DNA of 64,000 nt, from contig CADCLU010000003.1 of assembly GCA_902802355.1 (NCBI GenBank), positions 3,870 through 67,869 on the forward strand, read 5' to 3'. The position numbers and the translations under genes are program-made. How positions within the stretch are numbered: the first letter of the stretch is position 1; the number at the start of each line of letters is the position of its first letter. This DNA is from an uncultured Erysipelotrichaceae bacterium (lineage in GTDB: Bacteria; Bacillota_I; Bacilli_A; RFN20; CAG-826). Under the pieces are notes generated by a model. That model saw nothing but the letters and a program-made list of their open reading frames with translations, was not told where the DNA came from and ran no database searches. This document shows positions 14,809-34,045 of this stretch, piece after piece.

Positions 14809-14928
14809 AGTTTTTCTCCTATAGATACGGCTTATTTTATCTTAGATAAAAGAAAACTGCTAGGGTTTTTAGGCCCTAGCAGCAAATCACATATAACCTA
14901 AAGGTTATTTATATCGGATTTACCTAGC

Positions 14929-17900
14929 TTATTCAGCTTTGGCTTCTTTCTTGCCTTTCTTGATAACAAGGAACCAGACAAGGGCGAATCCGCCAGCGAG
15001 GACGAGAACGCCACCGCCAACGGAGATGCCAATGATGGCAGCTAATGGGAGACCGGCCTCTGGGGCTGGAGCTGGAGTTTCTTCAGCGGCTTCGTAAGCT
15101 GGGTCGTAGACTTCGATGTCGAAGACTTCGGCGACTTCTTTCTCGGTTCCGTCAGCAAGGGTGATGGTGGCCCAAACAAGGATTGGGTAAACGCCACGCT
15201 TGGTTGGGGTGCCGACTAACTTGCCATCTTCAGTGGCTTCCATGCCAGCTGGGAGGGCGTGGTCAACCTGCTGGATGTCGATCTTGTAGTCGGTAGCAGA
15301 GGTGACGGCCTGTTCGGCATCGCCTTTGCCATACTTGGCATCATCAGCGAGCTCGAAGGAGATCTCAGCGGCTTCGTTGATGTTGATCTTGTTAGCAGAA
15401 GCTTTGGAGACACCGTGGACTTCTTCACCAAGGAAGGAGGTGTTGCCCATGGTGGCAGCGCAGTTGATACCGGCGTAGAGGATTTCCTTGGCGCAGGAAC
15501 GGACAGCGTAGTACCAGGAGTAGGAGTAGACCTTCTCACCTTCGTAGGTGAAGTAGGCCATCATCTCATCATCGTCCCACTTGCACTCGATCTTGTCGCC
15601 ATAGGAGCTGTTGTCGAGCTGAGCGTTGCAGCCAGAGAGGCAGCGCCAGTTGATGTTCTCATACTTGGTTCCATCGAAGGAGCTGTTGTTCTTGTGGTCC
15701 ATATCGGACATGACAGCGCCTTTGAATCCCCATTCTTTGCGGAGAACGTTGGTAAGTAAGTTGTAGTTGCCACCGGTTTCCATCATACCAAGACGGTTGT
15801 AGGAGGACATGATGCCACGGCTGTGGCCTTCCTGGATGACCATCTGGAATGGACGGAGGTAGAGCTGACGGAGAGCCTGCTCATCAACGAAGGTCATGGT
15901 ACCTTCACGGTTCTTTTCCTGATCGTTGACAGCGAAGTGCTTGAAGTAGCAGTAGACGCCCTTCTTGGAAGCGCCATCGACGACTCTGCCGGCGAAGCGA
16001 CCCATTAAGAATGGATCAGCGGCATAGTATTCGAAGTTACGGCCACCGAATGGTGAACGGTGCATGTTGACGGCGTTACCGAGCCAGCCACAGGTGCCGG
16101 TCTGGAAGAAGGATTCGCAGCCGATGATCTTGCCCTGTTCGGTAGCAAGCTCAAGGTTGAAGGTGGCGGCGACGGTTGGTTCACCACACCACCAGATGAT
16201 TTCGAACTGGTTTGGACCGTCGGAGTCGGTGGTCTGGGATTTGCCGATAGCGTCTAATCTTGGGTTGTGGAAGGCACCGTCTTCGACGAACTTACGGAGT
16301 TCGGCGTAGGTGAATTCGTTGAGGAACTCATCCCATTTCTCGGTGTCATCAAAGGCAACACCGAACATGTCCTTAGCCTGGATACGCTCACCTTTGTCGA
16401 GGGCTTCCTCTTGCTGAGTCCAGCCGAGGGCTTCGATGTCTTCTTTGGTCTTGTAGGCCTCTTCGGAGACGTATCCGTTATGGAGAACGTCAAGGTCGGC
16501 CATGATGAAGGAGTGGGTAAGGTATTCTTCAGCTCTGGAGTTGGCTGGGAGAGTACGCTCTTCAATGGTTGGGTGCTTCGGGAAGGTGGTCTCGAAGTTG
16601 GAACGGCTCATGTGATCGAAGCCAATGGAGTTTTCCATTGGGAGGGAGCACTGGAAGCTGGTCTTGTCGGAGAACTGGTTCTTAACCTCAGTGCCGGTGT
16701 AGCGATCGTACTTGTACTGGATACCACCCTTCTTGACGTTAAGTTTCTTGGCAGCGATCTGCTCGTGGGCGTTCTTCATGATGGCGACTTCGTATTCGCC
16801 TTCATCAAGTTCGTAGCCCATGAAGCCATTGCCATTGGCGTCGCTGTAGTCATAGTCAGCGACATCCTGGAGGTAGAAGCTGCAGGTGACTGTGTCGCTC
16901 TCGCCTGGTTCGAGCATCTTGGTCTTGCCAAAGGCGCAGAGGACGTGGTCGGCTTTTTCGATTCCGCCAGCGGTGTAAGGAGCTCTCCAGTAGACCTGGA
17001 CGACGTCCTTACCAGCGACAGAACCGGTATTGGTGACCTTGACATCCAAGGAGACGGTCTTCTTGGCGCCGGTGAGGATGGATCCTTCACCTGGTTCGAA
17101 GGCGGTGATTTCCTGGGAGAAGGTGGTGTAGCTTAAGCCATAGCCGAATGGGTAGATGACACCTTCTTCGCCGTTGTACCAAGTATCGGCAGCGGCTTTG
17201 TCGGTTTTAGCCATATCGGCATAGCGGGTCTCATAGTAACGATAGTCGACATAGATGCCTTCTTCGTAGTTGTCATAAGCGGCGCAGTAGCAGCCGTTGA
17301 GACCACGGTTTGGAACTTTATGCTCTTCGTCAACCCAACGGGCCTGGGTGCAGGTGCTGGTTGGGGTGCCGTCAGCATTGATCATGGTGTGGTTTGGAAT
17401 TGGTTCGCCGTTGGAATCGCGATAGAGTTCGCCACTCTCATCGGTGAAAGTCTGGGAGTTATCTGCGAAGTTCTGGAAGGTTGGGTTCTTGGTGTGATCG
17501 CGGGTCCAGGTATCGACAGTGTGTCCGCTTGGGTTGACGGCACCGGTGAGGATTTCGCCGATGGCCTGAGCGCCGACGGCGCCTGGGGTACCCATCCAAA
17601 GGACGGCACCGATCTTATCATCTTCGAAGGCATCGCACTGGAAGGCGTTACCGGAGTTGATGAGGATGATGATCTTGTCGAATTTCTCCTTAACCATCTC
17701 AAGCATGTCAATCTCGTTATCGGAGAGCTGGAGGAAGTGCTTGTCAGATGGAGCGCTGCTCTTGGTGTCACGGGCGTCCATGGCCTTAAGGTCAGTACCT
17801 TCGGAACCGGAACGGACGATGACGACGACAGCAGCGTCATTGTACTCATCGAAGCTGGATTTGACAGCGTCGGTGTAGCTGGCGACTGGGGTCTCACCAA

Positions 17901-18396
17901 CAGCTAAGTCGCAGATACCATCGTAACGAGTGGTGCCTTCACGGCCCTTGCCGGAGGCGTTGTCATCATCATAGAAGTTTTTGAGGGTTGGGTTGATTTC
18001 CCAGCCGACCTTCTCGAGGGACTGGTGGATATCGACGGCAGTCTCACCGTTGACACGGCCTTGACCGGATCCGCCACCACCGCGGAGCCACTTCTCGCTG
18101 CCACTCTTGTTCTTGGAGTTCTTACCAAAGATGGAGACTTTGTGAACATCGGTAAGTGGAAGCATGTTGTCCTTGTTCTTGAGAAGGACCATACCTTCTC
18201 TGGCAATCTCTAAGTTGCAAGCGGAACCGGCCTTGATGAGGTCATTCTTGGTTAAATACTCGCTGTAGAACTTGCCCTGATGCTCGCCAACAAATGGGTC
18301 GATCATTTTGTCGACGGATGTTCCAGCGGTAGCAGCAGCACCGATCATCATCAATGCGGAGACACCGAGAACACCTAACAATTTCAATTTTTTCAT
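14929..18396 (-). CDS. Glycoside hydrolase family 3 protein, large (1155 aa), N-terminal signal and C-terminal TM anchor
   Basis: GH3 motifs (KHFAVNDQE, KEWGFKGAVMSDM). Start moved to MKKLKLLGVLGV (18396), removing an N-terminal extension. C-terminal TM plus KKGKKEAKAE. Confidence 0.85.
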   Translation of the reverse strand: MKKLKLLGVLGVSALMMIGAAATAGTSVDKMIDPFVGEHQGKFYSEYLTKNDLIKAGSACNLEIAREGMVLLKNKDNMLPLTDVHKVSIFGKNSKNKSGSEKWLRGGGGSGQGRVNGETAVDIHQSLEKVGWEINPTLKNFYDDDNASGKGREGTTRYDGICDLAVGETPVASYTDAVKSSFDEYNDAAVVVIVRSGSEGTDLKAMDARDTKSSAPSDKHFLQLSDNEIDMLEMVKEKFDKIIILINSGNAFQCDAFEDDKIGAVLWMGTPGAVGAQAIGEILTGAVNPSGHTVDTWTRDHTKNPTFQNFADNSQTFTDESGELYRDSNGEPIPNHTMINADGTPTSTCTQARWVDEEHKVPNRGLNGCYCAAYDNYEEGIYVDYRYYETRYADMAKTDKAAADTWYNGEEGVIYPFGYGLSYTTFSQEITAFEPGEGSILTGAKKTVSLDVKVTNTGSVAGKDVVQVYWRAPYTAGGIEKADHVLCAFGKTKMLEPGESDTVTCSFYLQDVADYDYSDANGNGFMGYELDEGEYEVAIMKNAHEQIAAKKLNVKKGGIQYKYDRYTGTEVKNQFSDKTSFQCSLPMENSIGFDHMSRSNFETTFPKHPTIEERTLPANSRAEEYLTHSFIMADLDVLHNGYVSEEAYKTKEDIEALGWTQQEEALDKGERIQAKDMFGVAFDDTEKWDEFLNEFTYAELRKFVEDGAFHNPRLDAIGKSQTTDSDGPNQFEIIWWCGEPTVAATFNLELATEQGKIIGCESFFQTGTCGWLGNAVNMHRSPFGGRNFEYYAADPFLMGRFAGRVVDGASKKGVYCYFKHFAVNDQEKNREGTMTFVDEQALRQLYLRPFQMVIQEGHSRGIMSSYNRLGMMETGGNYNLLTNVLRKEWGFKGAVMSDMDHKNNSSFDGTKYENINWRCLSGCNAQLDNSSYGDKIECKWDDDEMMAYFTYEGEKVYSYSWYYAVRSCAKEILYAGINCAATMGNTSFLGEEVHGVSKASANKININEAAEISFELADDAKYGKGDAEQAVTSATDYKIDIQQVDHALPAGMEATEDGKLVGTPTKRGVYPILVWATITLADGTEKEVAEVFDIEVYDPAYEAAEETPAPAPEAGLPLAAIIGISVGGGVLVLAGGFALVWFLVIKKGKKEAKAE

Positions 18397-18861
18397 TGTT
18401 CTTGCTTTCTTCTTTCTTTCTCGGACCGTTATTTGTTTCTCATGCGTTTGTATGGTCCGCCAATGGGCGCATGAGGGCGAAAGAATACCACGCGAAAAGC
18501 ATGCATTTTTCACCTGTTTCGAGAGTATTCTATTTTGGAAGCGCTTACCCCAAGCATGACAATCTTGCGTTTTATGGACGATATGTTTCTTGCTGGCTTT
18601 TCGTATTAAATATTAATTTAATGGTAAATGACCCTTTTGTGGTCACTATAAAATGTCGTGATTATCAAAAAATACCTAGTTTTTGCCAAGGATTTTATGA
18701 TTTCTCAGAGTTTAGACAATCTTGCTGAATTGAGTCTTTTTCTTATGGAAATGATATTTTCACTAAAAACGCATTAATAAATATAAATATAAGGATAAGG
18801 GCGATTCGCATTCATCACCGCCGCCACTTTTATTGTTTATTGTGCACGCACGTGCGAGAGG

Positions 18862-18899
18862 CAAAGAAAAAACCGTTCACGCGGAACGGTAGTTTTTTT
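18862..18899 (-). terminator. Rho-independent terminator after tRNA-Ser (hairpin ACCGTTC/GAACGGT); likely bidirectional
   Basis: 7-bp GC-rich stem flanked by an A-run and a T-run. Confidence 0.6.
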
Positions 18900-18903
18900 G
18901 AGT

Positions 18904-18993
18904 GGCGGAGGCGTCGAGATTTGAACTCGAGCACGGGAATCCCCGTCTAACGGTTTAGCAAACCGTCCCCTTCGGCCTCTTGGGTACGCCTCC
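18904..18993 (-). tRNA. tRNA-Ser (anticodon GCU)
   Basis: Cloverleaf with long variable arm. Anticodon stem-loop ACGGT-TTGCTAA-ACCGT. T-arm GAGTTCAAATCTC. Encoded 3' CCA. Confidence 0.85.
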
Positions 18994-19035
18994 AACTCGC
19001 AAGAAGTACTATACTACAAACGTTTTAATAACGCA

Positions 19036-19902
19036 TTAGGAAAGTTGAGCAATTGATGAGGCGGCCTCAGTGTCCATTTCCGAGCGGGCGTCTGCTAAGT
19101 CCGGATAGATGTATTTCACGTTGTTCCAGTTATAGGTGGACGTCTTGATCATCTGTGGGTTCCTGATGTCGTAGCGTTTCACGAGATACTGATCGAAGAC
19201 GGCGGTCACTGACTTCTCCTCGCCATGGCCATAGGTAACGACGAACATGTCGAGGTTGCCTTCGCCTAAGGATGAGTATTTTGAGTCTTTGACGTACACG
19301 TCATGATTAGCATAGAGCGACTTAAGGAACTCATCGCATTCCGTAGCGACCTTGGAGATGTTCTTGCTATAGCGGTCACCCATGTTTTCATTCATCTTGG
19401 TCTCCCAGAATGAGAGAGCGCTCTCCCCTATCACTTCATTGAATTCGAGGATCTCTTTGCTATGAGGGTTTGGGAGAGAAACGCTTTCGTCTGAGACCCA
19501 ATCAACCTCTTTTGAGATATAGGTGATGAAGGTTTTCTCAGTAGCCGCAGGATCGAGATAGTAATACTCGTCGATGGTTTCTGTTTCAGTGACCTTGTAT
19601 GTTCCTGTCGTATCACTCACATCCCTGCTACCGGTCTTGGTGATGGTCTTGCAGTGCATGTAGTGATATTTCGAGGTCTTCGCGTAGGAGTAATTGACAT
19701 CGACCTCACGCGGAGTGGATTCGGTATAAGTGACGTGTTCGCTGTAACTGTAGGTCTCTGGAACTTCGAAATCGCCTTCCGAGACGCGGAGGACGATCTT
19801 ATCGAGGAGCTCAGTCGCTTCATCGCGGCTAAGGCTCATGGCGCAGGAGAAAAGAAGGACGCTTGTTCCAAGAAGGGTAAAAAGGGCCTTATTCTTCCTC
19901 AT
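19036..19902 (-). CDS. Hypothetical lipoprotein
   Basis: Lipobox LLFSCAMS. No recognised domain. Confidence 0.5.
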   Translation of the reverse strand: MRKNKALFTLLGTSVLLFSCAMSLSRDEATELLDKIVLRVSEGDFEVPETYSYSEHVTYTESTPREVDVNYSYAKTSKYHYMHCKTITKTGSRDVSDTTGTYKVTETETIDEYYYLDPAATEKTFITYISKEVDWVSDESVSLPNPHSKEILEFNEVIGESALSFWETKMNENMGDRYSKNISKVATECDEFLKSLYANHDVYVKDSKYSSLGEGNLDMFVVTYGHGEEKSVTAVFDQYLVKRYDIRNPQMIKTSTYNWNNVKYIYPDLADARSEMDTEAASSIAQLS

Positions 19903-19910
19903 GTGCCTAA

Positions 19911-20498
19911 TTATATTGATTTATCGGATAGAAGACTATCTGTAATGTTGTCGTTTTTAATCGAAACGTTATGGCTCGCTAAAGCGGCTTTAGTCTCATC
20001 GAGGGTGTTGAAGAAGGTCCAAGTGAGGCTATAGAAGAAGGTGGAAGTGAAATCCATGATGTTCTGGGAGGCGAGATTAAGATCATCGCCTTTGTCGGAA
20101 GATTCCACGAACTGGGAAAGAGCCACATTGAAATCACCCCAGTATTTAGGATCGAGGTTGCGGTTCTTGATCGCGTCCACCAAAACGAGGAGCAAGGATT
20201 CCTGAAGGCTATGCGTCTCTAGGCCATCGCTTCTTGTGTCATCGGTGCCGGTCTCTTTGACGATGGCGCGGGCGATAAGGTAATCGAAAAGAAATTCGAT
20301 GAGGTCATTCGTGTTCTCGCTCCAAGCCCAGTCGCTGTGGTAACCGGTTTCGTCTTTATAGATGTAATACAAAAACTTGGTGTTCTCCCCTATCGGCTCT
20401 TTCTGAAGGTCGGACCTGTGGCTGAAACGGGATGGGATTGGTTTCTCACCAACGATTTTGATGAGTTCGTTATCGAAAAGCGTATCAAGTTTGCTCAT
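19911..20498 (-). CDS. Hypothetical protein (195 aa)
   Basis: Complete ORF with coding-like composition. No recognised motif. No clear SD. Confidence 0.4.
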   Translation of the reverse strand: MSKLDTLFDNELIKIVGEKPIPSRFSHRSDLQKEPIGENTKFLYYIYKDETGYHSDWAWSENTNDLIEFLFDYLIARAIVKETGTDDTRSDGLETHSLQESLLLVLVDAIKNRNLDPKYWGDFNVALSQFVESSDKGDDLNLASQNIMDFTSTFFYSLTWTFFNTLDETKAALASHNVSIKNDNITDSLLSDKSI

Positions 20499-20541
20499 AG
20501 CGGTTTCATAGTAGTACCTTCATTGCCTTGAGGCAAGAGAA

Positions 20542-21105
20542 GTGAAATTGATTCTCGGAGGGAACATCGTTACAATTACCCTCATGGAAAGCAAGTTCTA
20601 TCTACGAATCCCAGGACCATCCTTCTATGAGAACCCTTATGAGAGGGAGTCTATTTGCTATTCCTTTGATCTTACTAAGGGAGTCCTCGATATCGAAAAG
20701 AGAATACTCGCTTCGAAATCGTTCAAGACAATGAAAGATGAGAAGACCATCCCTGAGAATCTTCTTTCCAAACTCAAAACCCTTCTTAGCGAGAAACACC
20801 TATTCGTTTCCAAATGCATGGAATCATATGTCCCTGCTGATGGAAAAAGATTCCTCCATTCCGTGTTCAGCTATGGAGAGAAAAAGATCCTCTACCCTGA
20901 CTATCTCAACAACTTCGGAAGCAATGACATCTTCGTAAGGTATGAGTTCTATCCGGAGAGGGAAAGGGTTAGCTTATACGCCTTCATCAGAGAACTTATG
21001 AAGACCGCATTTGAGATCGATGGCTATCCTGAAAAGGAATTCCCAACCTCAAACAAAATCCCCGTCATCTTAAGAAGAATGGACGAGGATATCTCACTCG
21101 AATAA
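20542..21105 (+). CDS. Hypothetical protein (187 aa; GTG start, alternative ATG at 20584)
   Basis: Complete ORF. GAGG 8 nt upstream of the GTG. Followed by a bidirectional terminator at 21108-21146. Confidence 0.4.
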   Translation: MKLILGGNIVTITLMESKFYLRIPGPSFYENPYERESICYSFDLTKGVLDIEKRILASKSFKTMKDEKTIPENLLSKLKTLLSEKHLFVSKCMESYVPADGKRFLHSVFSYGEKKILYPDYLNNFGSNDIFVRYEFYPERERVSLYAFIRELMKTAFEIDGYPEKEFPTSNKIPVILRRMDEDISLE

Positions 21106-21107
21106 CA

Positions 21108-21146
21108 AAAAATCCGTGGCAAATCGTCCACGGATTTATTTTTTAC
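21108..21146. terminator. Bidirectional rho-independent terminator (ATCCGTGG/CCACGGAT hairpin) shared by convergent genes
   Basis: 8-bp stem with an A-tract on one side and a T-tract on the other. The stop codon of the giant helicase lies within the T-tract. Confidence 0.65.
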
Positions 21147-24100
21147 CTGATTCCGACCTGTTCTTCGCCGATCATGTATAAACCGTTCCTTCTCGAACAG
21201 TTCCACTTGATGGCGTTCCTCACATAGTCGTAGCTCGTTTTCTTTAGTAAAGCGTATCCCAAAGCGAGGTTCACCTCATGGCAAAGGTCGTCTAAGCTCA
21301 TCGTTCCCTGATTGGTGATGAGGTCGGCCGCGCAGTTGCCGATCTCGATGTAAGAGATATCGACAAGCCTACGGCAATCGCCTTCCTCGGTCTTTCTCCA
21401 GAAACGGTTGTTGTTCATATCGACACTACGTGGGTAATAGAAGTTATGACCGCCGCAGCATTCGATGAGGACTTTGACGTTATTTAGGGCGAGGGTGAAT
21501 TTGCTTCTCACGACAGAGCCGATTCTTCCAAGTCCGAAGGTCTCTCTGAATCTTGATTCAAGGAGCTCCTGGGAGATTGGGTATTCGGTGCCGATAGTCT
21601 CAATGAAGAAGGCAAACATATCACCTTCGTTCATCGCGTTCGAACCATGTTCTGGTACATATTCGGCACGAGTGTATGGCTTCTTGTTTGGAGCGGCGTC
21701 CACCGCTTTCTTGACGAAGAGAGGGTCTTTGTCGTTGGTGATCGCCTCATAGAGGCTTTCCCCGTTCAAAGAACGGTTGAAGGCGTTCACGATATCCTTA
21801 AGGACCTCGTCTCTATGATCGAGATACTCAACCGAGTAGATGTGATGGATGTTCCACCTAAGTCTATTGAGGACGAATGGCTCATTGATATGCCTATCAC
21901 GGCAGGTCAAAGAAGCGTTCTTCGTGTTGTCGATGATGACACCGAGGACATATTCGTCTGGTTTGTTCTTCTCAGAGATGGCGAGGTCGATCTTGAAGGT
22001 CGAAGCGCCAAGATTCTCTTTGACGACATAGCCAAGAGCCTCAAGGTCTTTCTTTAAGAAAGTCGCAATTGAGGTAGCCTCATCGCCCATCTCATTCTGG
22101 TTTCTGTTGGCCAAGGAGGATAAGCCGTTCTTAGCGAAATATAAGAAGTCACGGAGATAGGACGCGCCCATGTTTTTAGCACGTTCGGCCTGAATCTCCT
22201 CTGGCTTCATGCTGGAGAAGACGATCATCTCTTCTCTGGCACGACTGACGGCGACGTTAAGTCTTCTCTCGCCTTTCTTCTGGGAGAGAGGGCCGAAGTT
22301 GAGGGAAAGACCGTTCTTCTTATCAGGTCCATAGGTGGTGCTGAAAAGGACAACATCCCTTTCGTCACCTTGGACGTTCTCAAGGTTCTTGATGAAGATC
22401 TTCTCCCCTCCTGGAAGAGGATCGAGGAACTCATTCTTTGAGAGCTCTCTTTCGAGCATATCTTCAATAAGGTTCTGCTGGGCTTCGTTGAAGGTGACGA
22501 CACCGATGGAACGATGCCTGAGTTTCTCATCTTTGAGTCGACGAATGACTTCTTTGACGACTTCCTGGGCTTCTGGTTTGTTGATGCCTCTGCCTCTTTC
22601 GTAAGCGCCGTTGATGTAACGGTAGGAGACGGATTCCTCTTCTGCCACAGGGGATGGGAAGGTAAGGAGGCTATTGCCGTAGAAGCGATTGTTGCTGAAA
22701 GCAATGAGGGACTCATGACGGCTTCTGTAGTGCCAGTTGAGCCTTTCACGAGGGAAAGAAAGCGATATTGCGTCATCAAGCAAGGACTCAAGGTCTTCAT
22801 CAACTGAGCTAAGTGAAGCGAGATTGTCTTCGCCTAAGCCTAATGCGGACACGAAGAAGTTGGTCGGAGGCATTTGCTGCTCATCACCAGCGATGATGAC
22901 GGAGTCGGCTCTCGCCATCGCTCCAACGGCTTCGGAGGTTGGGATCTGTGAGGCCTCATCAAAGATGACCACATCGAAGTGATACTTCTCGATGTTGAGA
23001 TATTGAGCGACCGCGACAGGCGACATGAGGAAGCATGGCGTAAGCGTCATGACGAGGTCTTTGAACTCATCAAAGATGTAACGGAGAGAGGCTCCCCTGC
23101 CACCGTTCTTGGCGAGTTTGGTGAGCTTATAGGCATTCGTGCTCGAAGCAAATGACTCTGCGTTCTTTGGATACTTCTCAGTGATTGAAGCTGCGACGAC
23201 ATTGACGGCTAAGCTTTGGATCTTGGCCATCTCCTCACGGTAGGACTTCACAAGATCTTCGGTGCTTGATGCACTTAAAGTGGAGAGGTCTCTTTCGATG
23301 AGGACACGTCTGAGATAGGAGAGATAGAGATCCGCTTTGAAAGAAGGGATGAGATTCTCTTCTGGGATCTTGCCTTCGAGATAGGCTTTGAAGAAGTTAG
23401 GATCAACCGCTTTCTCCATGCGGTCGAGGTAGGTCAAGAGGTTGCACCACTCAGAGAGACGACCGCTAGATGCGCAGGCATCCTGGATTTTGCCTCCGAG
23501 GTATTTGAAATAGTCATGCTGATCCGGATACTGATTGAGGTCGAATCCGAAGCGGTCCATGAGGTCTTTCTTCTTGTCGCTGAAGATAGCGAACATCTTC
23601 TTGAGCTTGGAGTTGGAGTCGCTATAGATGGTGCCTCTAGCAGCGCTTGAGATATAACTTGCAAAGGCTTCTCCGTTATCGTGCTTGAACTCCATCTTCT
23701 GGATGTTCGTGGCGATATCCAAAGTGGTCTCAAGTTCGGTGAGACGCTGAGCGCTTTCTGAAGCATTAGAGAAATCGTATTCGCCTAAGACGAAGCGGGA
23801 ATATGAATCGCATTTTTTCACATTTTCCTCGTCAAAATACGCTTCTTTTAATAAATCGAGGGACTTTTTGAGGCCATCTCCTTTGAGAGCGTTCTTGTCG
23901 TGGAGGAATGGTTTGAGCCTGCCTCTAAGTTTGTTAAGGGCGAAGAACTTTTTAATGAAGTTAAGCTTATTTGCCTCTTCGTATTCGCTTTCAAGCTGGA
24001 GAGGGTCGAAGGAGGTGTACACGTCGTCGATGAAGTTGATGGCCACCGCCGCTTTATCCTCGGCGAGTTTAATTTTCGCTTTCGCAAGAGCGCGAAGCTT

Positions 24101-26980
24101 ATCAGCATTCTCAAGGAAGGTCGAATCAAGGAAGTACTTGGACCAGGTTGGGATTTCGCTTTGGAGGTCGCTCATGATGTTGAGATAAGCCTCAACGTTC
24201 TTTGCGGACTCATAGAGTGAGCCTTCTTTGAAGAAAGCGTTATACGTGGCAAGTTCCATATCCTTGCAGATATCGACGAGCTCATCGAGTTCAGCGAAGA
24301 CTTTGTTTCTGTAATCGAAGGTGTAGTCCCTCTTCTGGAAACCGATGAATGGGCTTCTCAGATATGAGGTGAATGGCTTGACGAAAGAAACATAAGCGGA
24401 GATTTCGTTCAAGGTCTCAAGATACTTCTGAGGGGTGAGGGATTCGAAATAGCTTGGCTCAATCCTTGTGCCGGTTTTGTATTCCTCATTCTCGAGGTAT
24501 CCGACGATGGCGTCGTAAGGCGAGATGAAATATGAGCCTTTCTCGTGGAGGGATTCGATGATGTTATTGAGTTCCTTCCTCTTCTCCATGATGGAGTCGC
24601 TTAAGGAACGGTAATTGTCGACGCTCTCAAGAGGGCCCATAGCAAGGAGTTTGGAGTAGATCGAAAGGATCTCGCTCTTAGGTTTGTTTAAGGAGGCGAT
24701 TTCTAAGCAGAACTGGCCTAAATGGAGGTCATCAAGCCTTCTCTTAACGACATCAAGGGCGACTTCCTTCTCGGCGACGAAGAGAACCTTTTTGCCATGG
24801 TAAAGGAAGTTCGTGATCATGTTGGCGATGGTCTGGGATTTGCCAGTGCCTGGCGGGCCATCGAGGATGAAGGATTCGCCTTCCTCGGCATCGACGATGG
24901 CTTTGATTTGGCTGGAGTCGGCTGGGAGGGCGGTTGCAATATCGCGAGGGTTGATTCTCTCATCCATCTCATTGGCCGGGATGAGATTCTCGGTGTCGTT
25001 CCACTTCTTCTCGCCATAGACGAAAGAGGCAACGAGCTTGTTGTTCATCACCTTGTTGCGGTGATTCTTAAGGTCGCTCCACATGACGAAGTGGGAGAAG
25101 TTGAATAAGGAAAGTACGCTTCTGTTCTCAAAGAGAAGCCAGTTCTTCATTGGGGCGATGATGTTCCTGATCTCGTTATAGATGAGACGGACATCGACCT
25201 GGCCATTAGCGAGTCTTGGAAGAGGATAAAGTTTCGAGAAATCAAGGCCATAGTTCTGTTTGAGGTATTGGAAGAAGGTGCTGTTAAGTCCGATGTCGTC
25301 GAAATCGTAATCGAGCGTATAGAATGGGCCATTCTTTCTTCTTGGCATCTTTCCTTCCAGAAGGAAGATTGGGGCGTACATGGCGCCCGTGCCTCTTTCG
25401 GCCGCTTTATCGTTGTCGTACCAACGGATCTCACCGAGAGTGAGGAAGAGAGGGTTGCATCCGCTTTCCTCGATGCTGGTGTTGCTCTTTCTGGCTAAAG
25501 CTTTCAAAGCCTCGTCTGGGTCATCGCTCTTATTGACGGTGGTGAGCATGGCTTTCGAATAGTTCTCTTTGATGGTTGGGCCATAGACTTTCTCGTCGAA
25601 GGAGAGAGGCTGTTTCTTCGCGGTGTCGCTTAACTTGAGTGCAGCAGGGACAAGGCTCACCTTCTCATTCTTCGAAAGGAAGGAAAGATATTCGACTGGG
25701 TCCACCACTTCGATCTCGATGCCACGGAGTCCGCCTTTGTAGTTGATGAGGCGGTTACGGAGATTGAGATCAAGGAGTTTGTCTTCCCAATAGTCGTAGC
25801 GGTTTTTGGCTCCTTTGGCATCCTCTGGGAGGAAGCGTCTATTGGTCACATCAATGTTCGGCAAAGCATAATCCATGCTGGAAATGCTAGGGAAATCGAA
25901 ATAAATGGTGCCATCTTCCTTCTCTTTTTTGGTTGGGACAGGAAGGATCCATTCCTTGCGGCACATCTTGATGTCGAGGGCGTAAGCAAACTTCTTCTCT
26001 TTCTCGAGGAAGTCTTTGGCGTCCGCCATGGCCTTATCGAAGGTGATTTCGTTGCCTTCGGTGAAGTCGACGACGTTGATGAGGGCAAGATGGTTGAAGC
26101 CTTCGGAGGCGTTGTTTAACAGGGTCTGGAGATTGTCTTCTTTGCTCGTTGGGAAAGAGAGTTCCTCAAGCCAGCAGCCCACAAGAGCGTGGCTATGTGT
26201 GACGATAAGAATTGGTCTTAATCCGACATTCTCTAAAAGAGAGCAGAAAAGGAGAGAGGTATCTAAGCAATTGCCGACCCTTTCCTCGATGACTTCGTGA
26301 GGGAGCCTAACACGCTGGAAGACTTTCTCAAAGGAAGCTGGGGTTGTGCTATAGCGGATACCGCTTTGCTGGCAGGCAAGATAGAGAGCGTCGATATCCT
26401 CAAGGACGGCGTTAGGGTCATGGGACTGGTAATCGTCGAACGCGCTGTTATCGTATTTGTCTTTCTTGATGGCAGCGGCTTTTGCGGCGAGGTTCTTAAC
26501 AAGAGGGTCATTCGGAGTGACGAAAGAGGCGAGAATCTCATCGATCCATTCCGAGGATGCGCTTTCCTCGATTGGGAGGAAACGGATATCGACGGATGAT
26601 GTTGCAAGCATCTCCCCTGTTTCGCTGGTGATCGTGGCAACGAGGGAGCCTGGCATGGCTTCATTGAGCGAATAGAGCTTGAGAGGGTCTAAAGTGATCT
26701 TGAAAGAATCGACGATGGTCTCTTTTTTCTTCTCGAGGCAGGTGATTCTTATTGGCTGGATCTCAAAGAATTCGGGATTGGCCTTGAAGGAAAGGCGGAC
26801 GTCCCTAGCGTCCTCATCCGTGTCGTTTTTGATGATGATCTGACGGAGGAAGGAAAAAGAATTCTGCTTGCCGCCTAGGGCCTCCTTAAGGAGACTCTCG
26901 GCCTGATAGTTCACATAGTTGACGCTTTTGCTTGAGTCGATTCTCAAAGAAAAGCCAAGGTTCTCTAATTCGTTGCTCAT
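21143..26980 (-). CDS. Giant (1946 aa) SF1 Upf1/DNA2-like helicase with a large N-terminal domain and a C-terminal putative endonuclease-like domain (DUF4011/AAA_11/AAA_12/DUF3320/DUF559-like architecture, assigned from memory)
   Basis: Walker A ILDGPPGTGKSQTIANMI, motif II VIFDEASQ, VTFNEAQQ, LNVAVSRAREEMIVF. Start moved to MSNELENLG (26980). The longer ORF runs in another frame through proS and past its terminator. Confidence 0.8.
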   Translation of the reverse strand: MSNELENLGFSLRIDSSKSVNYVNYQAESLLKEALGGKQNSFSFLRQIIIKNDTDEDARDVRLSFKANPEFFEIQPIRITCLEKKKETIVDSFKITLDPLKLYSLNEAMPGSLVATITSETGEMLATSSVDIRFLPIEESASSEWIDEILASFVTPNDPLVKNLAAKAAAIKKDKYDNSAFDDYQSHDPNAVLEDIDALYLACQQSGIRYSTTPASFEKVFQRVRLPHEVIEERVGNCLDTSLLFCSLLENVGLRPILIVTHSHALVGCWLEELSFPTSKEDNLQTLLNNASEGFNHLALINVVDFTEGNEITFDKAMADAKDFLEKEKKFAYALDIKMCRKEWILPVPTKKEKEDGTIYFDFPSISSMDYALPNIDVTNRRFLPEDAKGAKNRYDYWEDKLLDLNLRNRLINYKGGLRGIEIEVVDPVEYLSFLSKNEKVSLVPAALKLSDTAKKQPLSFDEKVYGPTIKENYSKAMLTTVNKSDDPDEALKALARKSNTSIEESGCNPLFLTLGEIRWYDNDKAAERGTGAMYAPIFLLEGKMPRRKNGPFYTLDYDFDDIGLNSTFFQYLKQNYGLDFSKLYPLPRLANGQVDVRLIYNEIRNIIAPMKNWLLFENRSVLSLFNFSHFVMWSDLKNHRNKVMNNKLVASFVYGEKKWNDTENLIPANEMDERINPRDIATALPADSSQIKAIVDAEEGESFILDGPPGTGKSQTIANMITNFLYHGKKVLFVAEKEVALDVVKRRLDDLHLGQFCLEIASLNKPKSEILSIYSKLLAMGPLESVDNYRSLSDSIMEKRKELNNIIESLHEKGSYFISPYDAIVGYLENEEYKTGTRIEPSYFESLTPQKYLETLNEISAYVSFVKPFTSYLRSPFIGFQKRDYTFDYRNKVFAELDELVDICKDMELATYNAFFKEGSLYESAKNVEAYLNIMSDLQSEIPTWSKYFLDSTFLENADKLRALAKAKIKLAEDKAAVAINFIDDVYTSFDPLQLESEYEEANKLNFIKKFFALNKLRGRLKPFLHDKNALKGDGLKKSLDLLKEAYFDEENVKKCDSYSRFVLGEYDFSNASESAQRLTELETTLDIATNIQKMEFKHDNGEAFASYISSAARGTIYSDSNSKLKKMFAIFSDKKKDLMDRFGFDLNQYPDQHDYFKYLGGKIQDACASSGRLSEWCNLLTYLDRMEKAVDPNFFKAYLEGKIPEENLIPSFKADLYLSYLRRVLIERDLSTLSASSTEDLVKSYREEMAKIQSLAVNVVAASITEKYPKNAESFASSTNAYKLTKLAKNGGRGASLRYIFDEFKDLVMTLTPCFLMSPVAVAQYLNIEKYHFDVVIFDEASQIPTSEAVGAMARADSVIIAGDEQQMPPTNFFVSALGLGEDNLASLSSVDEDLESLLDDAISLSFPRERLNWHYRSRHESLIAFSNNRFYGNSLLTFPSPVAEEESVSYRYINGAYERGRGINKPEAQEVVKEVIRRLKDEKLRHRSIGVVTFNEAQQNLIEDMLERELSKNEFLDPLPGGEKIFIKNLENVQGDERDVVLFSTTYGPDKKNGLSLNFGPLSQKKGERRLNVAVSRAREEMIVFSSMKPEEIQAERAKNMGASYLRDFLYFAKNGLSSLANRNQNEMGDEATSIATFLKKDLEALGYVVKENLGASTFKIDLAISEKNKPDEYVLGVIIDNTKNASLTCRDRHINEPFVLNRLRWNIHHIYSVEYLDHRDEVLKDIVNAFNRSLNGESLYEAITNDKDPLFVKKAVDAAPNKKPYTRAEYVPEHGSNAMNEGDMFAFFIETIGTEYPISQELLESRFRETFGLGRIGSVVRSKFTLALNNVKVLIECCGGHNFYYPRSVDMNNNRFWRKTEEGDCRRLVDISYIEIGNCAADLITNQGTMSLDDLCHEVNLALGYALLKKTSYDYVRNAIKWNCSRRNGLYMIGEEQVGIR

Positions 26981-27010
26981 AGGAAAATTGTAGAACGATT
27001 TGCGTACGCG

Positions 27011-27046
27011 GACAAACAAAAAAGCCTCCTTTTTAAAAGGGGGCTT
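27011..27046 (-). terminator. Rho-independent terminator of proS
   Basis: AAGCCCCC-loop-GGAGGCTT hairpin followed by TTTTGTTTG on the minus strand. Confidence 0.65.
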
Positions 27047-27065
27047 TAAGTCTAAATCTTGTCGA

Positions 27066-28508
27066 TTAATAAGCTCTAGCGAAATAGGCGAGAATACGGG
27101 CCTTTTTGCCGGTGACTGGATCAAGGAGATCGGTGTCTTCAGGAAGCTCTTCGGCGATGCAGCGGGCGGTTCCGCCTTTGGTGAGCTCTTTGATCTTGAC
27201 CTCACTCTCTGGGGTTCCGTCATAAGCCATGAGGGCATAGCCGCCAACATTATTGAGAGCGGCGTTAAGCTCATCGAGGTTATTGACCTTGGTGATGTGC
27301 TCGTCGCGGTACTTGAGGGCTTTCTGATACATGTCGTTATGAATCTCATCGAGGAGAGGAGCGCAGAGCTTCTCGATCTCTTTGATTGGGAGGACTTTCT
27401 TCTCACCGTTCACACGCTTGGTGAGGACGGCTTCGCCATTGGCGAGATCCCTTGGTCCGACTTCGATGCGGAGTGGGACGCCTTTCATCTCATACTGGGC
27501 GAACTTCCAGCCTGGGGTTCTCGTATCATCGTCATCGAGTTTGACTCTGATGCCCTGGCTCTTGAGTGCGTCATAGATCTCGTGGCAGGCATCAAGGACG
27601 CCTTCCGCTTGCATCTTGATTGGGACGATGACGACCTGGGTTGGGGCAACGCGTGGAGGGAGGACAAGACCATTGTCGTCGCCATGGACCATGATGATGG
27701 CGCCAAGAAGTCTCGTGGAAACGCCCCAAGAGGTCTGGTGTGGGGTCTCAAGTTTGTTCTGTCTTCCGAGGTAATGAATTCCATAAGCCTCAGCAAATCC
27801 CTGTCCTAAATAGTGGGAAGTACCACTTTGGAGGGCCTTTCCATCCGGCATGAGAGCCTCGATGGTGTAGGTTGCTATGGCACCTGCGAATTTCTCGTTT
27901 TCGGTCTTCTTGCCTTTGAGGAATGGGATGGCTAAGAGATCGCGTCCAAGGTCATCGTAAATGTCGAGGGCCTTCTTGACGTTGTCTCTCGCTTCTTCTT
28001 CGGTCTCGAATAAGCAGTGTCCTTCCTGCCAAAGGAATTCAGAGCCACGGAGGAATGGGCGGGTGGTCTTCTCCCAGCGGACGACTGAGCACCACTGGTT
28101 GAAGGAAATCGGGAGGTCTCTATAAGAGGAGACGATCTGTTTGTAGAGGTCGCTGAAGAGGATCTCGGAGGTTGGACGGATGACAAGAGGGTCTTCAAGC
28201 TGCTTGGCTCCGCCAATGGTGGCGATGAGGGCCTCTGGAGCGAAGCCTTCGACATGCTCTTTCTCTTTGTTGAACATGCTCATCGGGATGACGAGAGGGA
28301 GATAGACGTTTTTGGCGCCAAGCTCGTTCTTGATGCGTTTATTGAAATAGTTCTGGATCTCTTCCCAGATGGCGTATGAGTAAGGCAAATAGTTGATGAA
28401 GCCTTTGACGGAGGCATAGTTCATGAGCTCCGCTTTGCGGACGACGTCCGTATACCATTGGGCAAAGTCCTGAGATTGCGATGTGATTGCGTTGTTTTTG
28501 TTTTCCAT
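27066..28508 (-). CDS. proS: Proline--tRNA ligase (archaeal/eukaryotic-type class II, 480 aa)
   Basis: Short-form ProRS lacking the bacterial insertion domain. Class II motifs. C-terminal zinc-binding-like end. Confidence 0.85.
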   Translation of the reverse strand: MENKNNAITSQSQDFAQWYTDVVRKAELMNYASVKGFINYLPYSYAIWEEIQNYFNKRIKNELGAKNVYLPLVIPMSMFNKEKEHVEGFAPEALIATIGGAKQLEDPLVIRPTSEILFSDLYKQIVSSYRDLPISFNQWCSVVRWEKTTRPFLRGSEFLWQEGHCLFETEEEARDNVKKALDIYDDLGRDLLAIPFLKGKKTENEKFAGAIATYTIEALMPDGKALQSGTSHYLGQGFAEAYGIHYLGRQNKLETPHQTSWGVSTRLLGAIIMVHGDDNGLVLPPRVAPTQVVIVPIKMQAEGVLDACHEIYDALKSQGIRVKLDDDDTRTPGWKFAQYEMKGVPLRIEVGPRDLANGEAVLTKRVNGEKKVLPIKEIEKLCAPLLDEIHNDMYQKALKYRDEHITKVNNLDELNAALNNVGGYALMAYDGTPESEVKIKELTKGGTARCIAEELPEDTDLLDPVTGKKARILAYFARAY

Positions 28509-28516
28509 GTTGATGA

Positions 28517-30322
28517 TTATTTCCCTTTCACGTTTGTATTGAAACCTTTCATTTCAAGGACACGGGTAGCGTGTTTTTCATTGACCTCCACGATCTCGCG
28601 GCTGAACGGTGCGAAGATGTTGCAGCTTATGTAGTCGATGCCACTGCTGACGACGAGTTCGATGGAGTCCCAGTTCTTAAGATCGCTTGCGATGATCGGT
28701 TTCTTGAATTTGATGAGCCTCTCTACGAGAGCGTGTAACTGCGACCTGATCGTCGCGTCCATGTTTCTTTCGCTGCCATGCGAGCTGAAGTCGACAATGA
28801 AGCTGTCGCCCATGGCCAAGAGCTCTTGGTCAATGAGGAGGGCCTTGCCACTAAGGACGAAGGCGATGTCATAGTCGTTTTCGTGGATTTCGTTGAAGAG
28901 CCTCTTGACCTCTTCTAAGCCCATGCTTCCGACGGCGTTATTGACGTCAGACTCTTTGAGGGTGAAGACGAGGTTCGCTTCCTTCGCGTTACGTAAGCGC
29001 TTGAAGAAGGCTGGGATGGACTCAAGCTCATTCATAAGGGCCGGGTAGAAGAGCTTTTGGCTCTTGAGTTCTCTCTCGGCGATATATGTTCCGACTAAGT
29101 TCTTGGCGATGGCGGCGAAGAGGTTCTTCTCGTCTTTCGCTCTAAGAGCGTAGTTCTTGAGCTCTTCCATGTTGTAGAAGGCGCAATCGGCGGTAGGCTC
29201 GGCTCTTCCGATGAAGCCATAGACACGCCTTCTGCCGATTGAGTAGATAGGTCGATAGGTGTAAAGGATCTTCTTCTCGTAGATGATTCTCTCAACCTCA
29301 CTTCTGTAGTTGCCGGACTCACTGGTCTCCGCGAAGTCATCGATGCCCTGTTTGTAGAAGTAGATCGATGATGGAAGTTCGAAGGCGTTGGCGGCACATT
29401 TCCTTGAGGCTAAGAGAATGGCGGTACCGTCACCGAGTAAGTCTTTATTGGCAACGACACCGACCTTGATCTCAAAGAGGTGGTCATGAGGTTTGCGGTT
29501 TGCTTTAAGCGAGGAGGTAACGCTGTTGACGACCTTAAGGGCGAAGCTGATGGCCTCGGTGTTGTCGTTCATGTCGTAGTTGGCGATGATGTATTCCGCC
29601 TCTCCCCCACCGAGAAGTTTGGCTGGGGCTTTGACGTATGGCTCTAAGGCCAAACGGTATCTGAGAAGGAAGGATCTGCTGAGCTTCTGTTCTTTATTAT
29701 TCTCAGCAAAACCGTAATCTTTTGGCCTGATGGCGAAGCAGAAGGTCATGCCGTTGCTAGTTCCGTTGGCCTTAAGGTAATCGACGAAATCACGTTCGGA
29801 GGAAAGAAGGAGAGATGGGCCACTGGCGGATCTTCCGTTCTTCTTGTCGAGAAGGATATAGCTCTCTAAGTGGGCGATGCCTTTTGCCGGGTCAACCTTA
29901 GCGACTCTAAGGAAGGCCGGGAACTTCTTCGTGGACCTCTTGAAGAAGACGGTTGTCTGAAGGTAATCGGTGGTTTGTTTTCCCTCTAGGACATCATTGA
30001 CCCAACTCTTGATTCTGTTTGGCTCATGTCCTGGGAAGGAATCGTAGAACTCCTGGATGGAGCAGGTACGTTTTTCGGACATCGCACCAAGGTTGAAGTA
30101 AGTCACGACATCGAGGGTGTTGTCGATTTTGTATACGCGGATATTGGAGGCTTCGTAGGTCATGGCTTTGAAGTACTCGTCGTCTCTTTTCCTCGCCAAA
30201 AGGAAGGTGATGATGAGAATGATGATCACCGCGCTGGCCAACAAGAAAAGGACGAACCTGAGAATAAAAGGCCAATCGAGGCTAGCAAGCCAGTTTACGA
30301 TGTTCTGGAAAAATTCTGCCAT
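28517..30322 (-). CDS. Membrane-anchored protein with degenerate EAL-like (and possibly degenerate GGDEF-like) domains
   Basis: N-terminal TM. C-terminal region IDQELLAMGDSFIVDFSSHGS...IIASDLKNWDSIELVVSSGIDYIS resembles EAL motifs (DDFGTG, EGVE, QGY) but is degenerate. 8 nt upstream of proS. Confidence 0.35.
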   Translation of the reverse strand: MAEFFQNIVNWLASLDWPFILRFVLFLLASAVIIILIITFLLARKRDDEYFKAMTYEASNIRVYKIDNTLDVVTYFNLGAMSEKRTCSIQEFYDSFPGHEPNRIKSWVNDVLEGKQTTDYLQTTVFFKRSTKKFPAFLRVAKVDPAKGIAHLESYILLDKKNGRSASGPSLLLSSERDFVDYLKANGTSNGMTFCFAIRPKDYGFAENNKEQKLSRSFLLRYRLALEPYVKAPAKLLGGGEAEYIIANYDMNDNTEAISFALKVVNSVTSSLKANRKPHDHLFEIKVGVVANKDLLGDGTAILLASRKCAANAFELPSSIYFYKQGIDDFAETSESGNYRSEVERIIYEKKILYTYRPIYSIGRRRVYGFIGRAEPTADCAFYNMEELKNYALRAKDEKNLFAAIAKNLVGTYIAERELKSQKLFYPALMNELESIPAFFKRLRNAKEANLVFTLKESDVNNAVGSMGLEEVKRLFNEIHENDYDIAFVLSGKALLIDQELLAMGDSFIVDFSSHGSERNMDATIRSQLHALVERLIKFKKPIIASDLKNWDSIELVVSSGIDYISCNIFAPFSREIVEVNEKHATRVLEMKGFNTNVKGK

Positions 30323-30409
30323 GTCTAAAATGTGGTCTTAGACCACGGCTTCATTTTAGCACGCGAAAAAGCAGTAAAGGGAACAAATTGATGAAGCGTA
30401 CATCTTTTC

Positions 30410-30439
30410 TTGCTAAAGAGCCTACCTGTGGTTTATGAT
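30410..30439 (+). promoter_or_regulatory. Sigma-A-type promoter for tRNA-Ser(CGA): TTGCTA-18-TATGAT
   Basis: The hexamers lie 10 nt upstream of the tRNA 5' end. Confidence 0.4.
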
Positions 30440-30449
30440 TTCTCACGCC

Positions 30450-30540
30450 GGAGAAGTACCCAAGCGGCTGAAGGGGTTAGTCTCGAAAACTGATAGTGGG
30501 CGCAAGTCCAGCGAGGGTTCAAATCCCTCCTTCTCCGCCA
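30450..30540 (+). tRNA. tRNA-Ser (anticodon CGA)
   Basis: GGAGAAG acceptor, long variable arm, anticodon loop CTCGAAA, T-arm GGGTTCAAATCCC, 3' GCCA. Confidence 0.85.
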
Positions 30541-30554
30541 AACTTAAATTGATC

Positions 30555-30582
30555 GGTTCCAAGAAATTGGAACTTTTTTATT
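30555..30582 (+). terminator. Rho-independent terminator after tRNA-Ser(CGA)
   Basis: GGTTCCAAGAAATTGGAACTTTTTTATT. Confidence 0.65.
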
Positions 30583-30841
30583 CGCCCATTCTATGGAGCA
30601 AAGCTCCAACTTCGCTTAGTTTCTCGTCTAATTCGTTTTCGCAGCACGCGTCATGAACGCAGTGCTTGATGTGGGCGAGAAGGACAATCTCATTGGCCTT
30701 TTTGAGGACAGCGATCGCGGCCATGAGCTGATTGGAAATGTCGATGCAATATGCATCGTCATCGACCATTTTCTGAATGCCTTCGATCTGTCCTTTCGCT
30801 ATAGCGAGCTGGCGTTTTACCTTTGTTGGATCTGCTTTCAT
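30578..30841 (-). CDS. csoR: CsoR-family copper-sensing transcriptional repressor
   Basis: 87-aa DUF156-type protein with metal ligands (C..H..C: AYCIDI..., HIKHCVHDACC). Confidence 0.8.
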   Translation of the reverse strand: MKADPTKVKRQLAIAKGQIEGIQKMVDDDAYCIDISNQLMAAIAVLKKANEIVLLAHIKHCVHDACCENELDEKLSEVGALLHRMGE

Positions 30842-31062
30842 TATTTAACTGACACGAATTTGAAATGTGTCTCTCCTAATGCGTTCTTGTACTCTTCTTC
30901 GGAAAGAGGGGCTTCCGCTTTGACTTCGGCGATTCCTTTCTGATAAGAGACCTTGACCTTCTTCACGCCTGGAAGTTTCTCAAGGATGTTGGTGACTGTG
31001 CGGGCGCAGCCTTCGCACATCATCCCTTCAATGTTGACGATTTGTTTTTTGAGCATATTCAT
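30841..31062 (-). CDS. copZ: Copper chaperone CopZ (HMA domain)
   Basis: GMMCEGCARTV heavy-metal-associated motif. 73 aa. Confidence 0.85.
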   Translation of the reverse strand: MNMLKKQIVNIEGMMCEGCARTVTNILEKLPGVKKVKVSYQKGIAEVKAEAPLSEEEYKNALGETHFKFVSVK

Positions 31063-33359: not shown

Positions 33360-33361
33360 AG

Positions 33362-33378: not shown

Positions 33379-33488
33379 TGTAGAGCATCTCAAAAAGAGA
33401 GTCCATTCAGGTGATAAAAAACGTTCACTCATTGTGGTATCGCTTTTTTGCAAGCTATAATGAAAGACGAAAGGTGGATTGTTTACAA

Positions 33489-33998: not shown

Positions 33999-34045
33999 TC
34001 AACTTCCCTGATTAAAAAATAAGGAGCTGGTCAAACAGCTCCTTT

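Follow-up and report, generated by a model that had tools for sequence, protein, structure and literature searches.

A giant gene fixed beside proS in an uncultured Erysipelotrichaceae bacterium encodes a predicted helicase-nuclease at the edge of the ProA / PDC-S37 family

Does a very large helicase-nuclease gene that stands directly after a housekeeping gene defend its host against invaders, or does it serve the chromosome that carries it? This question is raised by a 64-kb stretch of DNA from an uncultured Erysipelotrichaceae bacterium (hereafter the window, meaning all 64,000 nucleotides analysed). Its positions 21143-26980 on the minus strand hold a complete coding sequence, here called the giant gene, with the ATG at 26980 and the stop codon at 21143-21145. 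Its product of 1945 amino acids belongs to the ProA / PDC-S37 family of helicase-nucleases. From the comparative analysis set out below, we consider it reasonably probable that the gene encodes a single-chain, stand-alone helicase-nuclease that would act against phages or other invading DNA in a modification-independent manner. The main rival reading is a role in genome maintenance, and the evidence on the locus has to be weighed against both.

Profile searches place the protein in a named family along nearly its whole length. The NCBIfam equivalog model NF058533, "anti-phage protein ProA", aligns residues 38-1910 in a single stretch with model positions 5-1902 of 1903, and the PADLOC model PDC-S37 (hidden Markov model PDLC05009) aligns residues 393-1927 with model positions 8-1533 of 1550 (E = 1.8e-287, 955 bits). 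A match of this quality over a 5.8-kb open reading frame (ORF) is far beyond chance. Since the ProA match is full-length and collinear but scores just under the curated cut-off of 1500 bits, the window protein is, as far as profile scores can place it, a divergent peripheral member of the ProA family that falls short of the strict equivalog. For comparison, the protein of a Pseudomonas aeruginosa conjugative plasmid scores 2372 bits and that of Bacteroides finegoldii 2197 bits. A metagenome-derived protein 41% identical to ours (P0034) passes the cut-off with 1590 bits, and a protein 53% identical to ours (P0005) lies below it with 1458 bits. The domains recognised by Pfam are DUF4011, AAA_11, AAA_12 and MTES_1575.

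The same protein also matches the PADLOC model for the defence gene Hhe (E = 1.5e-130). Against the NCBIfam Hhe model NF042953, it reaches only 606 bits where 2000 are required, and the best-scoring match covers residues 1016-1736 only. Identity as Hhe was therefore rejected in favour of a paralogous family: ProA / PDC-S37 is a sister family of Hhe and is already catalogued as anti-phage in databases. Hhe (Gao et al. 2020) was reported to act against the phages lambda, T3, T7 and PhiV-1, with activity lost in the nuclease mutant E1731A, and its helicase is classed as SF1_Upf1. A preliminary description of this DNA had assumed that the DUF4011-type family has no established function; the ProA and PDC-S37 entries and the reported activity of Hhe overturn that statement. 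Its analogy with single-gene helicase-nuclease defence proteins holds. Our literature search did not find the primary paper behind the names "ProA" and "PDC-S37", nor a published mechanism for the ProA-type family. Vassallo et al. 2022 do not mention Hhe, and a preprint on language-model discovery of defence systems mentions neither Prometheus nor ProA. A further preprint on a helicase-nuclease acting on forked DNA was set aside, as its subject is Druantia III, another family.

At the centre of the chain lies the motor, which by its motifs is a Upf1-like superfamily 1 (SF1) helicase. The first part of its RecA1 domain comprises residues 688-775 (24656-24919; this and all other domains lie on the minus strand) and is recognised as AAA_11. 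It contains the Walker A motif GPPGTGKSQT at residues 708-717 (24830-24859). An insertion of about 520 amino acids (residues 776-1299; 23084-24655) splits RecA1, and the rest of RecA1 together with RecA2 follows at residues 1300-1595 (22196-23083). The Walker B motif VIFDEASQ occupies residues 1338-1345 (22946-22969), its DEASQ part being residues 1341-1345, and the motifs VTFNEAQQ and VAVSRAREE are likewise present in the translation. All four helicase motifs quoted in the preliminary description can thus be read in the protein. Its assignment to a Upf1-like SF1 core is upheld by AAA_11 (62 bits) and AAA_12 (73 bits; residues 1399-1591, E = 2.7e-20), each with a cut-off of 27 bits, and by sequence matches in the PDB. 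The Walker A residues are invariant in the family alignment, as are D1341, E1342, Q1345, R1419, Q1537, G1538, R1541, R1572-R1573 and R1580.

By sequence, the closest solved structures are IGHMBP2, Upf1/NAM7 and Sen1, which match over the core only (residues 647-799, E = 1e-9 to 1e-3); the PDB sequence search returned no close relative of the window protein with a solved structure. IGHMBP2, Upf1/NAM7 and Sen1/senataxin share the RecA core and the same motif set with our protein, but they lack the transglutaminase-like, DUF4011, Vsr-like and winged-helix modules as well as the 520-aa insertion. No Pfam profile meets its curated cut-off within the insertion. With a mean identity of 23%, it is among the least conserved segments of the protein, compared with 60-65% for the RecA cores, of which the first part of RecA1 (65%) is the most conserved domain of all.

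The C-terminal third was modelled with AlphaFold2 (residues 1590-1945; mean predicted local distance difference test score, pLDDT, 87). It begins with a Vsr-like domain of the restriction-endonuclease fold, of the MTES_1575 type (residues 1644-1733; 21782-22051), which matches PF18741 with E = 7.3e-15 and 55.3 bits against a cut-off of 38.2. In Foldseek comparisons this domain resembles 3hrl, a DUF559/Vsr-like protein (target TM-score 0.71), and 3r3p, the catalytic domain of I-Bth0305I (0.76), both with probability 1.0. The residues D1665, D1684, D1695, R1696 and W1709 reach at least 90% conservation in the family and are all retained in the window protein, and the Vsr-like domain as a whole equals the transglutaminase-like domain and DUF4011 in its degree of conservation. 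Two winged-helix domains follow in the DUF3320-type region (residues about 1785-1944; 21149-21628), modelled with pLDDT above 90 nearly throughout. Foldseek relates them to the tandem winged-helix proteins UFL1/DDRGK1, JetB, ESCRT-II, cullin WHB and YceH at weak E-values of 0.02-0.6. The preliminary description had proposed a Vsr/DUF559-like fold and DUF3320 for this end of the protein. The Vsr-like fold, as MTES_1575, and a DUF3320-type region, as the two winged helices, were recovered; in the Pfam scan of the window protein, no DUF559 match is listed and the DUF3320 profile (PF11784) does not match, while it does match in many relatives.

The N-terminal third, which had been described as a single large domain of unknown function, resolves in the models into recognisable parts. 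The AlphaFold2 model that covers residues 1-680 and uses a 39-sequence alignment (mean pLDDT 84) begins with an immunoglobulin (Ig)-like beta-sandwich at residues 10-134 (26579-26953). In structure comparisons it matches Ig-like domains such as domain 3 of HAP2, pilus chaperones and MSP. Residues of about 147-345 (25946-26542) are predicted by fold comparison to form a transglutaminase-like (papain-fold) domain. The Pfam profile Transglut_core stays below its threshold here (E = 0.014). The positions corresponding to a catalytic triad are C238 (26267-26269), H264 (26189-26191) and N302 (26075-26077). The first two are at least 90% conserved and stand within a G-x-C-L-D ... G-H-A pattern; the third, placed by alignment alone, is Asn in the window protein versus Glu in most of the relatives shown. 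Asn is the usual third residue in papain-type triads. The arrangement of beta-sandwich and transglutaminase-like domain resembles that of animal transglutaminases, and the transglutaminase-like fold also matches Rad4/XPC, which bind DNA lesions.

This module is followed by an alpha/beta domain corresponding to DUF4011 (residues 394-660; 25001-25801; Pfam E = 4.8e-22 over residues 401-573). Most of it was modelled with confidence by AlphaFold2, and a structure comparison against the PDB gave no convincing solved counterpart for residues 394-660. Its invariant residues include W398, K401-D404, N409, G507, G516, P537, N566, T568, F626, F628, W634 and D636. Across the family the enzymatic cores are conserved and the insertion, the winged helices and the beta-sandwich far less so, which is the pattern expected of recognition surfaces.

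A protein of this architecture has been described before. Anantharaman et al. 2013 (PMC3710099) reported giant proteins in which HEPN occurs together with a transglutaminase-like peptidase, a superfamily I (SF-I) helicase, a Vsr-family DNase and two domains of the winged helix-turn-helix type (wHTH), the latter pair overlapping DUF3320. These giants are encoded without modification genes, and the authors proposed that the wHTH domains recognise invading DNA and that the other domains provide further lines of defence (PMC3710099). The MTES_1575-type giants share with the window protein the transglutaminase-like domain, the SF-I helicase, the Vsr-family restriction endonuclease and the two wHTH domains in the same architecture. 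They differ by the extra HEPN RNase domain: Pfam finds no HEPN or DUF4145 match in the window protein. DUF4145 (PF13643), which we take to be a HEPN-type family, is matched only in longer relatives of 2070-2260 aa.

Among the catalogued systems, ProA is likewise single-gene and its domains follow one another in the same order between the N-terminal module and the winged helices, but the P. aeruginosa and Bacteroides proteins score 2200-2400 bits where the window protein scores 1482.5, and the window protein differs in the third triad position and in its nuclease motif. PDC-S37, a single-gene candidate system in PADLOC, corresponds to our protein from DUF4011 to the C-terminus; its model begins at residue 393, and the window protein adds a module of 392 aa formed by the beta-sandwich and the transglutaminase-like domain. 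Hhe likewise carries DUF4011, a Upf1-like SF1 helicase and a Vsr-like nuclease on one chain encoded by a single gene, but its N-terminal half is unlike that of the window protein.

From these parts a working model can be proposed. The C-terminal winged helices would bind invader or abnormal nucleic acid, and the 520-aa insertion or the beta-sandwich may contribute to this recognition. The Upf1-like motor would then spend ATP to translocate on, or unwind, the bound nucleic acid, and its action might place or license the Vsr-like nuclease to cut. The N-terminal transglutaminase-like domain with its Cys-His pair could represent a second effector, acting as a peptidase, or a sensor or regulator that binds protein or DNA lesions.

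The preliminary description of a stand-alone giant ORF between two terminators is confirmed by the ORF list and by the sequence, with a length of 1945 residues plus the stop codon. The translation, taken from the ORFs listed for 14000-34000, begins with MSNELENLGF and runs through 1945 sense codons. The open frame itself spans 21143-27406 on the minus strand and reaches past the ATG to an upstream GTG at 27406. This GTG was rejected as a start, as the extension overlaps proS in its 3' part, and the column of M1 is invariant in the alignment of 39 full-length family members; for these two reasons ATG 26980 was taken as the start codon.

Downstream of the stop codon lies a bidirectional intrinsic terminator (21110-21137, both strands) with a 10-bp stem containing five G-C pairs and T-runs on each strand, which it shares with a convergent ORF of 187 aa. 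On the other side, the proS terminator (27018-27047, minus strand), a hairpin followed by a T-run, separates proS from the giant gene. Loci of relatives are referred to by L numbers: in L001, L010 and L002 the stem of this terminator is perfect (AGCCTCC...GGAGGCT, then TTTTTT), and in the window it has one mismatch, being unlisted by the terminator scan and seen in the sequence. Directly after this terminator a consensus scan detected the promoter-like site TTGTCC-17-TACAAT (26987-27015, minus strand). Such a scan is weak alone (nine sites observed versus 10 expected). The -10 box TACAAT ends 6 nt before the ATG, ahead of which no Shine-Dalgarno sequence is visible, and the box TTCTA(C/T)AAT with its 6-nt spacing to the ATG is kept in L001, L010 and L002, in the last of which the flank has otherwise diverged. 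Given a terminator on each side and the conserved promoter-like box before the ATG, the giant gene is its own transcription unit; its mRNA may be leaderless.

The family is large and widespread. A protein search with a limit of E <= 1e-10 found 207 relatives, and of the 120 that were listed the majority measure 1900-2000 aa. Confirmed matches numbered at least 596 when one genome per species was scanned, and they came from Bacillota, Bacteroidota, Proteobacteria, Planctomycetota, Verrucomicrobiota, Chloroflexota and Actinobacteria; the nearest is encoded by a metagenome-assembled genome (MAG) of an uncultured rumen Erysipelotrichaceae bacterium (89% identity). At E <= 1e-3, the N-terminal module searched alone matches 4038 cluster representatives, of which those of full length mostly measure about 1900-2300 aa. 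A short form of roughly 1570-1600 aa, found in about a dozen species, appears to lack the N-terminal module and is close in length to the PDC-S37 model. Among plasmids and megaplasmids, 542 records contain a match, four of them near full length. Phage genomes yielded essentially no family matches, and a phage origin was rejected on this ground. An "uncultured thaumarchaeote" MAG carries a C-terminal fragment (residues 1286-1945, 37% identity) on a 7.5-kb contig (L067, CAKXAF010000127.1); this copy could be genuinely archaeal or a binning contaminant.

No partner gene emerged from the surroundings of these relatives. When 441 neighbouring ORFs from 85 loci were clustered, only lineage-level synteny was seen and no neighbour recurred; together with the terminators on both sides, this shows that the giant gene is a single-gene system. 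Individual contexts vary. One family member lies directly after parA-parB near gidAB (L006), another beside AIPR and Macro-domain genes (L007). On a P. aeruginosa conjugative plasmid the gene is found next to ParDE and a bacteriocin gene (L089), and in Bacteroides it lies between rpsA and a reverse transcriptase gene (L090). In L005, which encodes a 48%-identical relative, a type I restriction-modification locus is located 6 kb downstream of the giant gene (21947-25859) and comprises hsdM, three hsdS fragments pointing in both directions and a recombinase of the phage-integrase family. An hsdM gene with inverted hsdS fragments and a recombinase is the usual layout of phase-variable (shufflon-type) specificity. 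Upstream, the same locus has a ParE/antitoxin pair. The L090 record itself (NZ_OY725931.1, B. finegoldii "plasmid 29", 45.8 kb) carries rpsA, glutamine synthetase III, trxB and bglX and looks like a chromosomal fragment, so that one of the four near-full-length "plasmid" matches is doubtful.

A clue to how the gene came to its place is given by proS, confirmed by Pfam, which lies directly upstream in the window and is itself preceded by a gene for a 601-aa membrane protein. The order of about 600-aa gene, proS and giant gene is kept in all relatives found whose giant proteins are 48-89% identical to ours: giant proteins of 88-89, 69, 53, 49 and 48% identity occur in loci whose prolyl-tRNA synthetases (ProRS) are 96, 87, 67, 69 and 71% identical, respectively. 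A metagenome scan anchored on proS detected the giant gene in none of 80 further loci with ProRS 52-72% identical to that of the window. In a ProRS tree, the carriers of the giant gene form one group, and the neighbouring groups keep the 601-aa-proS pair, with 2.7-10 kb of downstream flank, without it. The fixed site across the carrier clade and the absence from the same locus in sister clades suggest, as the simplest reading, one old gain downstream of proS followed by vertical inheritance. Over long times the gene is accessory, as it is missing from the proS locus of sister clades and a conjugative plasmid carries a member of the family. Recent transfer was rejected, since overall GC content and GC content at third codon positions (GC3) are both host-like. 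A defence hotspot after proS was likewise rejected, as the sister clades hold unrelated metabolic and transport genes and one IS66 transposase there, with no alternative defence systems.

Several further observations concern this region. In several lineages synteny breaks down after proS, and in a sister lineage without the giant gene the IS66-family transposase (L096, 4825-6336) follows proS at a distance of about 1.1 kb. The protein of about 600 aa (28517-30322 in the window, minus strand) has an N-terminal transmembrane helix, is encoded 8 nt upstream of proS and has no Pfam, NCBIfam or PADLOC match. It is paired with proS in L001, L002, L004, L005, L009 and many of L091-L132, with or without the giant gene and down to about 60% ProRS identity, and has the look of a conserved partner in an operon with proS. 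In the nearest species representative (L010, 9140-10095 and 10369-10379; RUG13880), two ORFs of 1016 and 567 aa stand in place of the one giant frame, with an 11-N scaffold gap nearby; this split is probably an artefact of the assembly and not a pseudogene.

Downstream of the giant gene, the window contains three small ORFs, then a tRNA-Ser gene (18903-18993) and GH3 glycosidase genes, so that both the tRNA-Ser gene and the block of orphan genes noted in the preliminary description are there. The ORFs, of 288, 195 and 187 aa, lie at 19036-21105, between the tRNA-Ser and the giant gene, and are without Pfam, PADLOC or NCBIfam matches; the 288-aa ORF has by eye a lipoprotein-like signal (MRKNKALFTLLGTSVLLFSC). 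They adjoin the giant gene in L001, L010 and L002 and do not in L004, L005 and L009, L004 having only a weak homolog of the 187-aa ORF three genes away. In the whole window four tRNA genes were found (18903-18993, 30450-30540, 50794-50884 and 62361-62444), three for tRNA-Ser (GCT, CGA, GGA) and one for tRNA-Leu (GAG), and no integrase was noticed near the two on either side of the giant-gene locus. One of the glycosidases (14929-18513, 1194 aa) is permuted, its GH3 C-terminal domain preceding the N-terminal domain with an Fn3-like domain between them. It is adjoined by a gene for a Listeria-Bacteroides repeat protein (13900-14808, minus strand), and the same pair occurs in L001.

A number of these results weigh against a defence function, and several of them also speak for the main rival reading, that the protein is a chromosomal genome-maintenance enzyme of senataxin/Upf1-like type, acting on R-loops, transcription-replication conflicts or damaged DNA, with any anti-phage effect secondary. 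The gene keeps its place after proS down to 67% ProRS identity, GC3 is host-like (0.63 for the giant gene, 0.64 for proS, 0.68 for the 601-aa gene), and Pfam, PADLOC and NCBIfam scans detected no defence or mobile gene in the immediate neighbourhood in the window. In these respects the giant gene looks more like a long-resident chromosomal gene than like island cargo. Family-wide, 131 immediate neighbours from about 80 species, counted per family and not per protein, are mostly housekeeping genes where annotated, and those of defence type amount to two reverse transcriptases (PADLOC, Pfam); copies after parA-parB or beside rpsA fit this pattern. Defence islands are thus not the setting of the gene in the window, the exceptions in the family being L007, L005, L089 and L090. 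Moreover, Johnson et al. 2023 (PMC10250203) report a large DUF4011 gene among the core genes of every P. aeruginosa isolate, and the Rad4/XPC match of the transglutaminase-like fold would suit a protein that handles lesions. ProA is probably the DefenseFinder system "Prometheus" (van den Berg et al. 2024), going by the name, the senataxin-like helicase and one secondary description. "Prometheus" is listed by one survey among the systems that DefenseFinder identified in rumen MAGs, is common in a Pseudomonas island hotspot and is vertically inherited in Lokiarchaea according to others, and is described as R-loop dependent in a paper citing van den Berg et al. 2024. Furthermore, the ProA score lies 17.5 bits below the cut-off, and the ATPase, helicase and nuclease activities, the substrate, the trigger and the anti-phage phenotype are predicted by way of family labels, Hhe and the 2013 analysis. 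Nevertheless, we regard a primary role in maintenance as rather unlikely. The gene is patchily distributed, with sister clades that have the same 601-aa-proS locus and no giant gene, and it evolves much faster than ProRS (53% versus 68% and 69% versus 87% identity). One copy resides on a conjugative plasmid by a toxin-antitoxin pair and a bacteriocin gene and another has an AIPR neighbour, curated databases label the family anti-phage, and the validated relative Hhe is a defence gene. The preliminary description had held that a shared syntenic place in all relatives, free of any link to mobile or defence islands, would count against defence. What we found is divided: relatives at 48-89% identity do share the proS site among non-defence neighbours, and against this stand the absence in sister clades and the conjugative-plasmid copy.

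The protein could also be partly decayed, with an intact helicase and an inactive nuclease and/or transglutaminase-like site, serving as a translocase or scaffold only or being on its way to loss. In the window subclade the nuclease motif reads DN rather than DG and a semi-conserved Tyr is missing from it, and Asn replaces Glu in the transglutaminase-like triad; going by these substitutions, one or both accessory activities could be weakened, a further point against an active defence effector. The window protein and P0005 also both fall just under the ProA cut-off. We nonetheless judge such decay very unlikely: the 5.8-kb frame is intact in every clade member at 48-89% identity, its sole apparent break lying at the scaffold gap of L010, and D1665, D1684, D1695-R1696, C238 and H264 are all kept. 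Asn is, moreover, the textbook residue of papain-type triads, and the Vsr-like domain has been conserved no less than the transglutaminase-like domain and DUF4011. That the giant gene works as part of a multi-gene system, joined by the 187-, 195- and 288-aa ORFs or by the 601-aa membrane protein, appears extremely improbable. The three ORFs do remain adjacent in L001, L010 and L002, and the 601-aa gene is found with proS and the giant gene throughout the clade; but the ORFs, which have no database match, are not adjacent in L004, L005 and L009, the 601-aa gene stays with proS even where the giant gene is missing, no neighbour recurs among the 85 loci from many phyla, and a terminator closes off the giant gene on each side.

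Overall, the window adds no new category of system: the architecture was published in 2013 and the family is already catalogued as anti-phage. It adds a divergent Bacillota subclade to a very large anti-phage-flagged family, a domain map that includes the arrangement of beta-sandwich and transglutaminase-like domain, and a documented "defence" gene living outside islands, long-resident, vertically inherited and fixed beside proS. Methods that detect defence genes by island context would miss this copy. A more far-reaching idea, which we rate as decidedly unlikely, is that the protein is an immune or maintenance machine with three activities, its transglutaminase-like domain being a helicase-controlled peptidase or cross-linker, and that in gut and rumen Bacillota it is a vertically inherited, core-like guardian acting on R-loops or replication intermediates of invaders and of the host chromosome alike. 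If this were true, the line between defence and genome maintenance would be blurred.

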